DNA from: an uncultured candidate division Zixibacteria bacterium
GTDB taxonomy: Bacteria; Zixibacteria; MSB-5A5; GN15; FEB-12
DNA: 64,000 bases
Assembly (NCBI GenBank): GCA_963806185.1
Contig: CAWDXE010000007.1
Location: forward strand, 384,001-448,000
Reading direction: 5' to 3'
In this document: positions 57 through 3,723 of the stretch, piece by piece
How positions within the stretch are numbered: position 1 is the first letter of the stretch
Layout: the number at the start of each line of letters is the position of its first letter
Notes under the pieces: generated by a model
What the model was told of the DNA's origin: nothing
What the model saw: only the letters and a program-made list of their open reading frames with translations
Database searches by the model: none
Program-made: the position numbers and the translations under genes

Positions 57-389
57 ATGAGCAAACCGATAGATGTCACCGACGAATCATTCGAAAAAGA
101 AGTGATTCAATCCGACCGTCCAGTCATCGTGGATTTCTGGGCCACTTGGTGCGGCCCGTGCAAAATGATTGCGCCTATTCTGGAGGAAGTCGCTCGCGAT
201 ATGGGCGACCGCGTAAAAATCACCAAGCTCGATGTCGATTCGAACAATAGAACCGCCGGCAAATACAACATCATGTCGATCCCGTCATTGCTGTTTTTCC
301 GCAACGGCCAGGTGGTGGATCAGGTCATTGGCGCGATTCCCAAAGCCCAGATTGTCCAGCGTCTCGAAAAAGTGCTGACCGCCGTCTGA
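57..389 (+). CDS. trxA: Thioredoxin
   Basis: 110 aa with the WCGPC active site and the SIPSL cis-Pro motif. Confidence 0.97.
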   Translation: MSKPIDVTDESFEKEVIQSDRPVIVDFWATWCGPCKMIAPILEEVARDMGDRVKITKLDVDSNNRTAGKYNIMSIPSLLFFRNGQVVDQVIGAIPKAQIVQRLEKVLTAV

Positions 390-403
390 TTCTGAACCCT
401 CAT

Positions 404-432
404 GGCCAGGCTCAACACTTCCTGGCCTTTTT
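404..432 (+). terminator. Intrinsic terminator after trxA
   Basis: GGCCAGG-loop-CCTGGCC followed by TTTTT. Confidence 0.75.
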
Positions 433-484
433 ATTGGCGTCAGGACCCTCTCGGGACGGTCAACCGGCTCTGCCATCTCTTTAC

Positions 485-513
485 GGAACTTTTCGACCCG
501 CCCCATTCTTACA
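485..513 (+). promoter_or_regulatory. Possible ECF (sigmaE-like) promoter upstream of the mini-selenoprotein
   Basis: GGAACTTT-N16-TTACA, resembling GGAACTTT-N15-GTACA upstream of the ECF sigma gene at 10013. Confidence 0.35.
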
Positions 514-580
514 GAGATGGGCTCCTTCGGGAGCTCCGTGAAACAGGCGGAATGACCGACAATCAGCACTGGAACAACCG

Positions 581-766
581 ATGGATTTTTACGACATACT
601 CTTTCTCCTGGCCTTTGTGGTGGCTTGGCTCCTGTTGGTCACCAAGGTGTTGCCTCGTTTCGGCGTCGGCACCTGAGTGACTCGAGATTGCCGGCTCCCG
701 GTGGGAGAGATCAAAAAGAAATCTGAGGCCCCGGAATCGCCCGATTCGCCGCCCAAAGCGAATTAA
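581..766 (+). CDS. Putative small membrane selenoprotein (61 aa, TM helix plus U-x-x-x-C)
   Basis: MDFYDILFLLAFVVAWLLLVTKVLPRFGVGT-UGA(674-676)-VTRDCRLPVGEIKKKSEAPESPDSPPKAN-TAA. Hydrophobic helix, Cys four codons after the UGA, and a downstream hairpin. Absent from the ORF track. Confidence 0.7.
677..712 (+). promoter_or_regulatory. Bacterial SECIS-like hairpin
   Basis: CTCCC-GGT-GGGAG at 695-707 with a G-rich apical loop about 24 nt after the UGA, plus possible lower pairing GAT(686-688)/ATC(710-712). Confidence 0.55.
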
Positions 767-830: not shown

Positions 831-1691
831 ATGCGTAATCAATGGGACAACAGAGCGACCTCCGGCGGCGGTCTGCAGATCGGCCCGGGTGCGCTGTCGC
901 CGTTCATCAAAGTGATGATGATCGTCAACGCGATTGTCTTCCTGCTGCAATACATCCTGCCCCGCTATGCCAACTTCGATATCACCGGGCTGTTCGGTCT
1001 CGTACCCGCCATGTTCTGGGGGCATTTTCCGGCCTACATCTTCCAAGCCTTTACCTACATGTTCCTGCATGGTGGATTCGGCCACATCTTCTTCAATCTT
1101 TTCGCTCTCTGGATGTTTGGTACCGAGATTGAGTACGCCTGGGGCAGCCGGTCATTCGGCCGGTTTTACATCATCTGCGGTCTGGCTGGCGCGCTTCTGA
1201 CCCTGCTCGTCTACCCGCATCAACAAGTGGTCACTATCGGTGCGTCGGGCGCCATCTACGGTGTGCTGGTCGCCTATTGGCTGATGTTCCCCAATCGCGA
1301 TCTCTATTTTTATTTCCTTGTTCCCGTCAAAGTGAAATACGCCATCCCCGGCATGATGATTCTCGGCTACATCTTGAGTGTGACCGGCGGCTCCAATGTC
1401 GCGCACATGGCCCATCTCGGCGGTGCGGCTTGCGGCCTCATATATCTCAAGCTCGATTGGCGCTGGATGCGGCTGGGCGGAAAGCTAAAAGGCTTGCGTT
1501 ACCGCCGTCAAATGGCTAAGCTGGAGAAACGCCGCGAGGCCGCTGCGGATACGATGAAGCGGGTCGACGAAATCCTCGACAAGATCAACGAGGTCGGCAT
1601 AGAAAACCTGAGCAAAAGTGATCGCAAGTTCCTCGAAGACGCGGCTTCCAACTTGCGGCAGGAAAAGGATAGAGCGAGCAACCAGGGGTAA
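831..1691 (+). CDS. Rhomboid family intramembrane serine protease with C-terminal soluble domain
   Basis: FLHGGFGHIFFN, GASG catalytic Ser and AHMAHLGG motifs. C-terminal VDEILDKI...GIENLS tail. Start may be 822 or 831. Confidence 0.93.
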   Translation: MRNQWDNRATSGGGLQIGPGALSPFIKVMMIVNAIVFLLQYILPRYANFDITGLFGLVPAMFWGHFPAYIFQAFTYMFLHGGFGHIFFNLFALWMFGTEIEYAWGSRSFGRFYIICGLAGALLTLLVYPHQQVVTIGASGAIYGVLVAYWLMFPNRDLYFYFLVPVKVKYAIPGMMILGYILSVTGGSNVAHMAHLGGAACGLIYLKLDWRWMRLGGKLKGLRYRRQMAKLEKRREAAADTMKRVDEILDKINEVGIENLSKSDRKFLEDAASNLRQEKDRASNQG

Positions 1692-1697
1692 CACCAG

Positions 1698-2906
1698 ATG
1701 CGCAAGCGGATTCTGATCGCCGAGGCCGGCGACACCGTCCGACAGGCGGCCGAAACGGTCCTCAGACAGCACGGCTTTGAAGTCATCTCCGTCCCGAGCG
1801 CCGAAAAAGCGCGCGAGGTTCTGAATTTCGCCCGTCCCGACCTCCTGCTGGTGGGGGGCTCCCTTCAGACCGCCGACCAGCGCCTCTTTTATGATCGCTT
1901 GCATCACGATCCCAAAACCTCCAGTCTTCCCATGCTGGTCCTTGAACCGTCCGATAAGAAGTCACTCGACTGGCCGGGCGAACTGGTCGTCCACCAACCG
2001 ATCGACCCGAAAGAGCTGATCGACAAAGTTACTACGTTTGTTGCCCACTCGGCCGCTCGCAGCCAGCCGGTGCGCAAGGAAGAATCTCCCATCGGCGGCA
2101 CTGACGTATCGGACGCCTTCCTGGATGAGGCTCTCGGCCTTGACAAACTCGACGTTACCAAGTCGGAAATGTTTGACGGGACAACCAAGATTCGCAAAGG
2201 GCCGAAGGTTACCAAGGACGCCACCATCGGCTATGAACATTCGGTTGAGGAAGACCTCTCCGACTCGTCGCGCGTTGAATCACTTGTCATCCGCGATGAC
2301 AAGGGTGAAATCCACCATCACCCGGCGGGTCCCCAGCCGCCTGTTAACACCAATTCCACCGGCTCGCTCGAAATCATGAAAGACCAGTACGGTCTCACCG
2401 ACCCGGCCGCCTTTAAGCAGAGCCAAGCCCAGCAGCAGGACGCCGATCACGATTACAATTGGTTCGTAAACGCGATGCGCGAGGAGAACACACAGGGCGG
2501 CAAACCGAAGCCGGCGAGTGATTCGTCCCGCATCGCCGTTACCAAGACGTCGGCGTTGGTCGATCCGGTCACGCCGGGACCTGGCGGCGCCGCTGCGGCC
2601 AAACGCACTGAGGGAGTCGAGAAGTTCATCGACGAGTTTAAGAAAGAGATAGAACAACTCCGCTCCAACGACGTCGAGCCGCTCAGTTCCGTGCTCCCGC
2701 CGGGGACCACGGCTCCATCCGAAAAGCAACTGCCCTGGGAAGAGAAGCTGGAGAAGCTCTCCGGTGAGGAAATCGACCTGTTCACCAGGGAATTTGCGCA
2801 TGAACTGGGTGACCGGATCGCCGAACGAATCATCGCTAAAATCGACAGCGACAAGCTTCTCCAAATGCTGAAAGACGAAATCCTCGCCCGCGCTCGAAAA
2901 AAATGA
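1698..2906 (+). CDS. Atypical receiver-domain protein with long low-complexity linker and helical C-terminus
   Basis: N-terminal REC pattern (RILIAEAG...PDLLLVG) lacking the phospho-acceptor Asp. Confidence 0.75.
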   Translation: MRKRILIAEAGDTVRQAAETVLRQHGFEVISVPSAEKAREVLNFARPDLLLVGGSLQTADQRLFYDRLHHDPKTSSLPMLVLEPSDKKSLDWPGELVVHQPIDPKELIDKVTTFVAHSAARSQPVRKEESPIGGTDVSDAFLDEALGLDKLDVTKSEMFDGTTKIRKGPKVTKDATIGYEHSVEEDLSDSSRVESLVIRDDKGEIHHHPAGPQPPVNTNSTGSLEIMKDQYGLTDPAAFKQSQAQQQDADHDYNWFVNAMREENTQGGKPKPASDSSRIAVTKTSALVDPVTPGPGGAAAAKRTEGVEKFIDEFKKEIEQLRSNDVEPLSSVLPPGTTAPSEKQLPWEEKLEKLSGEEIDLFTREFAHELGDRIAERIIAKIDSDKLLQMLKDEILARARKK

Positions 2907-2976: not shown

Positions 2977-3723
2977 GTGTTTGAACAACCTACTGTTGGT
3001 ATCGGTACCGCCATTCTCGCCGGGCTGCTCTCCTTTCTTTCCCCCTGCGTCCTGCCGCTGATTCCCGGCTACCTGTCGTTTATCTCCGGCGTCTCGATGG
3101 ATGATCTGCAGCGTCGCGACCGCTCCAGCGCCCTCACCGGTCGCTTGTTTATCAATACTTTGTTCTTTGTGCTGGGCTTTTCCCTCGTTTTTGTCCTGCT
3201 CGGCGCGACCGCTTCGAGTCTCGGTAAGTTCCTCACCGAAAATCTCTCCCTTTTCAACAAGATTGCCGGCGTGCTGGTCTTCTTGTTTGGCCTGCACGTG
3301 GCGGGTGTATTTCGAGTCAAGGCGCTCAACTACGAGAAGCGTTTTCATCTCGACACCTCCAAACGTCGCGGCCTGCTTGGTTCGTCCCTGATCGGCATTG
3401 CCTTTGCCTTTGGCTGGACTCCCTGTATCGGGCCGATTCTCGGATCAATTCTCGTGCTCGCCGGTCAACAGGCCAGCGTCAATCAAGGCATATTGCTCCT
3501 GTTGTTCTATTCCGCCGGCCTCGGTATTCCGTTCATTATCACCGCCGTTTTGTTCAGCTACCTGATTGGCACTTTCAGTTTTGTCAAGCGCCATTTCCAC
3601 GCGATTGAGATTATTTCAGGCGTCCTGCTCATGATCATCGGCGTGCTCATCTTCTTCAACCTCCTCCAGAGCATTTCGACCTGGATTCTGAATCTTTTCC
3701 CGGCCCTGCAGAATATCGGCTGA
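2977..3723 (+). CDS. ccdA: Cytochrome c biogenesis / disulfide transporter CcdA
   Basis: LSFLSPCVLPLIPGY and FAFGWTPCIGPILG motifs, six TM segments, GTG start. Confidence 0.93.
   Translation: MFEQPTVGIGTAILAGLLSFLSPCVLPLIPGYLSFISGVSMDDLQRRDRSSALTGRLFINTLFFVLGFSLVFVLLGATASSLGKFLTENLSLFNKIAGVLVFLFGLHVAGVFRVKALNYEKRFHLDTSKRRGLLGSSLIGIAFAFGWTPCIGPILGSILVLAGQQASVNQGILLLLFYSAGLGIPFIITAVLFSYLIGTFSFVKRHFHAIEIISGVLLMIIGVLIFFNLLQSISTWILNLFPALQNIG

Follow-up and report, generated by a model that had tools for sequence, protein, structure and literature searches.

SELENOK is a single-pass membrane protein that carries its selenocysteine (Sec) in a disordered segment. SELENOS, likewise single-pass and with its Sec in a disordered segment, binds derlin-1, a member of the rhomboid family, as described in the available part of the source (PMC13524514). 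Proteins built from the YgaP/DUF2892 anchor (PF11127) and rhodanese modules are also small membrane proteins encoded near rhodanese and persulfide-dioxygenase genes, and in the accessible sections of one paper rhodanese and dioxygenase genes mark clusters for sulfide oxidation, which protect against stress from sulfane sulfur (PMC9163753). In addition, a selenoprotein family that matches the gene studied here is already predicted in print under placeholder names, and is uncharacterised. Zhang and Gladyshev listed an 'Unknown' family in 2008 with 15 reads from 9 samples and 0 Cys homologues (PMC2398784), and 14 of those 15 reads carry the present motif in the supplement as available (PMC2398784 Dataset S1). 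Peng (2016) gave 'Unknown (Geobacter lovleyi)' for 5 organisms in the available tables (PMC5029168), an entry taken as the same family through its name alone, and the deep-Sep study of 2025 includes six members in its Data S1 as known selenoproteins and none in its Table S1, within the accessible supplement (PMC12013277).

We analysed a window of 64,000 nucleotides, meaning the whole stretch of DNA, in which a preliminary description had presented a mini-gene as a hidden, unannotated selenoprotein; with placeholder names standing in the tables or supplements of three papers, the family itself is already on record. The published 'Geobacter lovleyi hypothetical' and GOS 'Unknown' entries, in the parts of the supplements available, resemble the window gene in size (50-75 aa), in the helix, in the arrangement W-x8-LP-x-x-G-x-x-T-U and in the downstream Cys, a likeness judged by eye and not by scoring those sequences. 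Moreover, protein P0136, which the own-phylum profile recovered (E 4.4e-7), is nearly identical in sequence to the GOS reads and has Arg in place of Sec. Table 1 (119 families) of a 2026 review and the available part of a 2022 review (PMC9312934) contain no entry under the placeholder name, where another label is possible in both cases, and no function for the family was found in the accessible portions of the selenoprotein literature consulted (PMC2398784, PMC5029168, PMC12013277, PMC9312934, PMC13326102, PMC1976440). Compared with the 2008, 2016 and 2025 listings as available, the present work adds an estimate of about 2,400 genome stretches, forms with Cys at the Sec site, Sec forms that lack the Cys, and an account of topology and gene context; the broad range, the Cys forms and the redox context of the family appear to be unreported in the literature consulted.

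The mini-selenoprotein gene lies at 581..766 on the forward strand. It opens with ATG at 581, crosses an in-frame TGA at 674-676 and closes with TAA at 764-766, giving 61 residues with the predicted Sec at residue 32 (674..676, forward strand); under translation table 11 the same frame appears as two fragments of 31 aa and 29 aa. The reading frame, the hydrophobic helix, the TGA and the open frame beyond it had all been described before and were confirmed in the sequence. The spacing U-xxx-C given earlier was in error, as the Cys (689..691, forward strand) is residue 37, five past Sec32 (U-V-T-R-D-C), that is, UxxxxC. A single transmembrane helix is predicted at 596..652 on the forward strand, at about residues 6-24, on the basis of hydropathy (the best 19-residue Kyte-Doolittle window starts at residue 6, mean 2.7), of charge bias and of an AlphaFold model with a helix at residues 3-28 followed by a tail of low confidence. 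A Pro-x-x-Gly turn, Thr-Sec and a charged tail follow the helix in that order, and the family as a whole can be written W-x8-P-x-x-G-x-x-T-[U/C]-x4-C. The tail past the Cys is likely disordered and likely serves mainly to house the SECIS element. Among members with a usable start, 68 of 76 and 103 of 109 show a net charge that rises across the helix, negative ahead of it and positive past it. Under the positive-inside rule the positively charged flank of a helix faces the cytoplasm, so the protein is likely N-out/C-in with Sec32 on the cytoplasmic side, a topology taken from the charge rule alone.

Database searches placed the protein in no family that has a Pfam or NCBIfam model. The thioredoxin-fold UxxC/CxxU arrangement does not apply, given the x4 spacing and the single helix; Pfam and NCBIfam returned 0 families above the curated cut-off for the window protein, and 51 Sec and 42 Cys members gave scattered weak matches only, the best at E 0.0025 (the Cys members being searched against NCBIfam only). 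A PDB sequence search yielded chance matches only (E 0.17 or worse), a single-sequence protein search found only one relative, truncated, and the ESM Atlas, queried with a Cys homologue, offered one unnamed cluster at 0.88, which is a lead only. With regard to the described systems, the mini-protein could be likened to SELENOS and SELENOK, as far as the available accounts go, in being single-pass, in a Sec placed in a disordered segment, in a Sec-Cys loop outside any thioredoxin fold and, in one lineage, in a possible link to a rhomboid-family protein. Nevertheless, its Sec stands about 7 residues past the helix, whereas that of SELENOS and SELENOK is at the C terminus, its Sec-Cys loop spans 4 residues instead of 13, and its SECIS lies within the ORF, unlike theirs; as set against those accounts, any likeness would be one of design. 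Unlike the YgaP and rhodanese proteins, in whose gene clusters the mini-gene is found (11 and 8 of 80 loci), it shows no PF11127 or rhodanese match and consists of one helix with no folded domain.

Conservation of the UGA was followed within the window's own phylum, where the protein query matched 134 of 285 genomes and a 51-row profile matched 151 of 285. The preliminary description had named homologues ending in TAA or TAG at this position as evidence that would count against it; in the phylum, all 150 listed matches have TGA. Ninety loci were then inspected, namely the 30 best, with the window included, and 60 chosen for spread, and the Sec site was TGA in 88 of the 90. The other two were set aside: L040 scores 4.5 and is probably a false match, and L039 (G044:C32:6562-6711), without TGA, looks frameshifted around the Sec site and may be a pseudogene or an assembly error. 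A stop within 15 codons past the UGA was found in frame in 2 of the 88 loci, compared with 22 and 59 in the other two frames, and outside the phylum in 0 of 111 loci, compared with 50 and 51. The Cys at +5, in turn, is present in 58 of the 88 own-phylum loci, and 23 of the 88 have no Cys within 8 residues of Sec, so that a fixed Sec-Cys pair, as put forward earlier, is not universal and the Cys is dispensable in part of the phylum.

A SECIS-type stem-loop lies within the ORF at 695..707 on the forward strand, where the earlier description had placed a CTCCC-GGT-GGGAG hairpin, and that hairpin was found as described. It has a 5-bp stem and a GGU loop, with GG in the apical loop, located 23 nt past the UGA. 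The bacterial SECIS model, in the available text of its source, calls for a loop of 3-9 nt with G in the first two places, a stem of at least 4 pairs, a spacing of 16-37 nt and an MFE of at most -7.5 (PMC13188914). The window hairpin agrees with this model, the MFE of the region being -10 to -12 kcal/mol, though the MFE fold pairs differently. Taken alone, it is close to chance (z 0.19, -1.00 and -0.35 in three windows), and its significance appears only across homologues. There, a 6-pair stem was 90% paired with 35 two-sided changes, compared with 10.5 in shuffled alignments (0 of 500 shuffles), in a set of 41 of 68 loci picked for an in-register hairpin, which answers the covariation check proposed earlier, and RNAalifold, unprompted, returned a stem overlapping the same hairpin. 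A detector that simplifies the published model, and is not bSECISearch, was positive in 69 of 88 own-phylum loci and in 104 of 111 TGA forms elsewhere; one Cys form of the 9 scored, and among the ordinary TGA stops of the source genome 133 of 1339 did. Synonymous-codon shuffles gave means of 6.2 and 10.0 and maxima of 14 and 18, which indicates that the hairpin is selected at the RNA level. Neither the hairpin nor the downstream segment showed the lack of conservation that had been named as a ground for doubt. In family f2 (L051-L057, L097) the hairpin lies farther downstream, at the limit of the bSECIS model, and a loop at 37 nt was seen in 7 own-phylum loci.

The preliminary description had also asked for the Sec machinery, and selA, selB, selC and selD are all present above curated cut-offs in the source genome, which is 82% complete: selA and an adjacent selB on contig C4, tRNA-Sec on contig C7 (63.1 bits against a cut-off of 47) and, on contig C1, a selD that itself contains an in-frame TGA. 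As selA was found in 264 of the 285 genomes of the phylum, its co-occurrence with the gene tells little here.

Homologues with Cys aligned to the UGA, which had been proposed as a check, were sought and found. On profile A4 the window protein reaches 44.8 bits (A1 versus A4, 99.6%), and the own-phylum profile matched 671 cluster representatives. Of 151 parsed proteins, the site is Cys in 96 and Trp in 17, the Trp being read here as TGA translated through by gene callers, while 27 stop at it. The source names shown among the best 120 of 2,235 matches are all 'hypothetical protein', except for one MGnify length tag. Moreover, a DNA pattern scan of 4 of the 64 parts of a collection of 185,579 species genomes returned 120 loci, from which a total of about 2,400 genome stretches is estimated; the pattern demanded a downstream Cys, so Cys-less forms were invisible to it. 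These loci comprise 111 TGA and 9 Cys forms, all 9 of the latter in Planctomycetota records, and the record titles include Desulfobacterales, Geobacterales, Planctomycetota, Acidobacteriota, KSB1, Armatimonadota, Chloroflexota, Spirochaetes and others. Locus L152, titled Candidatus Kuenenia stuttgartiensis, comes from a 7.4-Mb genome and groups with other planctomycetes, so the label may not fit.

The form of the gene follows the Sec machinery. For 50 of the 120 scan genomes, those with a TGA form have selA in 41 of 41 cases, compared with 4 of 9 for those with a Cys form. In one planctomycete class (sample G335-G530, the class of G294), 62 of 201 genomes sampled carry the gene, 48 of them as the TGA form, and selA was found in 46 of these 48 compared with 1 of the 14 stop-free genomes (13 Cys, 1 Trp), counts that come from related genomes and hence are not independent. 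Across that sample selA was detected in 123 of the 201 genomes, 105 of them above cut-off, which is a high Sec use, although several weaker full-length SelA-like matches may be a paralogue. The two TGA-form exceptions, G463 (L218, G463:C1:3108512) and G426 (L219, G426:C1:32510), keep both TGA and hairpin, and in these genomes no selA and no SelB above cut-off was found, with tRNA-Sec scores being marginal. Since both loci adjoin Cys forms on the tree, and since L219 (TGA) and L220 (TGC, hairpin kept) are identical at 94 of 105 flanking bases, the two genes could have been stranded after loss of the machinery and may represent snapshots of selenoprotein loss. Repeated switching from Sec to Cys is not claimed: the tree needs 7 changes, 3 of them forced by strong branches, yet the AU test does not reject one origin for all Cys forms (p 0.21). 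At L233 (G291:C11) a single contig carries the gene twice, about 10 kb apart, once in the Sec form and once in the Cys form.

Overall, on the evidence of sequence comparison, the UGA is almost certainly recoded as Sec, and the machinery, the UGA conservation, the covarying hairpin and the Cys homologues strongly support the earlier proposal of a membrane-anchored selenoprotein missed by gene callers.

Gene neighbours were then considered as a guide to function. In the window, the gene is preceded by trxA (57..389, forward strand), a thioredoxin with a WCGPC motif that matches TIGR01068 above cut-off, and trxA lies within 1.5 kb upstream in 65 of 68 own-phylum loci. Downstream, all on the forward strand, are a rhomboid protease with DUF6576 (831..1691), a receiver-like domain protein whose domain matches fall below the cut-offs (1698..2906; in 56 of 68 loci) and a CcdA/DsbD-type membrane disulfide reductase (2977..3723; PF02683), ccdA following in 17 of 20 extended own-phylum loci of families f1, f2 and f4 and in 7 of 80 loci elsewhere. 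A 192-bp gap separates trxA from the mini-gene (window 390-580), and in 31 of 88 relatives a gene of about 145 aa, which we take to be CoA-binding/YccU-like, lies within the locus; the window genome is without it here. In the 80 loci from other phyla the neighbours were ArsR (16), Trx/TlpA (15), FmdB zinc ribbon (14), YgaP/DUF2892 (11), ZAS anti-sigma (11), rhodanese or dioxygenase-rhodanese (8) and CcdA (7). At least one of these seven families was near 50 of the 80 loci compared with 20 of 598 control tiles of the source genome, an enrichment that is overstated, as the control is one genome of another phylum and the seeds come from the loci themselves; none of the seven is near 30 of the 80, and the top single family reaches 16 of 80. 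Single neighbours (by Pfam names) include TauE, DsrE, OsmC, peroxiredoxin, rubrerythrin and metal-transport genes.

The product is very likely a 61-residue single-pass membrane selenoprotein, and from its sequence and context we lean towards a role as a redox handle, recycled by thioredoxin, in the homeostasis of thiols and sulfane sulfur. SelB would read the hairpin and insert Sec at the UGA, and the helix would insert N-out/C-in, with the selenol held at the inner membrane face. At the membrane, the selenolate could then accept a sulfane sulfur or an oxidising equivalent; Cys37, where present, would resolve Sec as a selenylsulfide, lineages without the Cys would use an outside thiol, and TrxA would re-reduce the Sec.

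Three of these neighbours, ArsR, the zinc ribbon and ZAS, are as compatible with metal sensing as with sulfur, and a real selenoprotein that binds or senses metals or metalloids, its Sec and Cys chelating Cu, Hg, As or Zn, is a credible if improbable alternative. It would account for ArsR near 16 of the 80 loci, the zinc ribbon near 14 and the ZAS anti-sigma factor near 11, for single neighbours such as a CsoR-type repressor, ArsP-HMA, cation-efflux, ZnuA and a P-type ATPase, and for the extra Cys in some Cys forms. However, Trx/TlpA, CcdA, rhodanese and YgaP neighbours are equally common, trxA adjoins the gene in 65 of the 68 loci of the phylum, and 23 of 88 members offer one chalcogen ligand only.

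The rhomboid gene directly downstream in 58 of the 68 own-phylum loci, considered with the binding of SELENOS to the rhomboid-family derlin-1 in the available account (PMC13524514), would suit a role alongside the adjacent protease in the quality control of membrane proteins. We regard this analogy as unlikely to explain the family, as the rhomboid neighbour is confined to this order, where the gene order is shared by descent, and was found in 0 of 80 loci from other phyla (3-kb flanks) and in none of the tested loci of families f14, f16 and f17.

Outside the Cys and the codons imposed by the SECIS the tail is poorly conserved, and Cys-less versions persist, as would be expected of a selenium-sensing leader that acts on the downstream gene through read-through at the UGA, the peptide itself mattering little. 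Such a role is very unlikely, since Cys forms from genomes lacking selA retain the helix motif and both chalcogen positions, the downstream gene varies freely, and no terminator-like site was found at 330-900. The same stretch gave no promoter-like and no Rfam match. Hardly any credence can be given to the UGA as an ordinary stop of a 31-residue membrane peptide: annotation does end 27 of the 151 parsed proteins at this point, two TGA-form genomes are seemingly without selA and selB, and the window hairpin alone is insignificant, but the site is never TAA or TAG in the 150 listed own-phylum matches, Cys aligns to it, the frame stays open and the hairpin is selected at the RNA level.

Returning to the tethered redox handle, a broader proposal can be made only tentatively, and we consider it possible but doubtful: that this is among the commonest bacterial selenoproteins, in thousands of species yet absent from current catalogues and from HMM libraries, a fold-less tethered selenol shuttling electrons or sulfane sulfur between thioredoxin and CcdA, YgaP/rhodanese or, in one order, the rhomboid protein, as a bacterial counterpart of SELENOS and SELENOK. 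If true, this would show that Sec can serve bacteria in a minimal membrane peptide that has no folded redox domain. A family that stood at 5 organisms in 2016 is now widespread, and because its gene is truncated or 'hypothetical' in the protein records consulted and has no HMM, the selenoproteome counts of many anaerobes and planctomycetes are likely one short. Moreover, the Cys homologues, of which there were 0 in 2008, provide an expressible surrogate, which together with the Sec form in cultured Geobacteraceae makes the function testable.

Finally, the Cys form occurs fused to thioredoxin (P0155, P0012) or to rhodanese (P0156) in a few longer proteins, although these are lone sequences that may be read-through artefacts of gene calling. 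Protein P0157 combines an N-terminal CxxC (CGHC) domain with the mini-protein helix and ends at the Sec site, possibly representing a longer selenoprotein.
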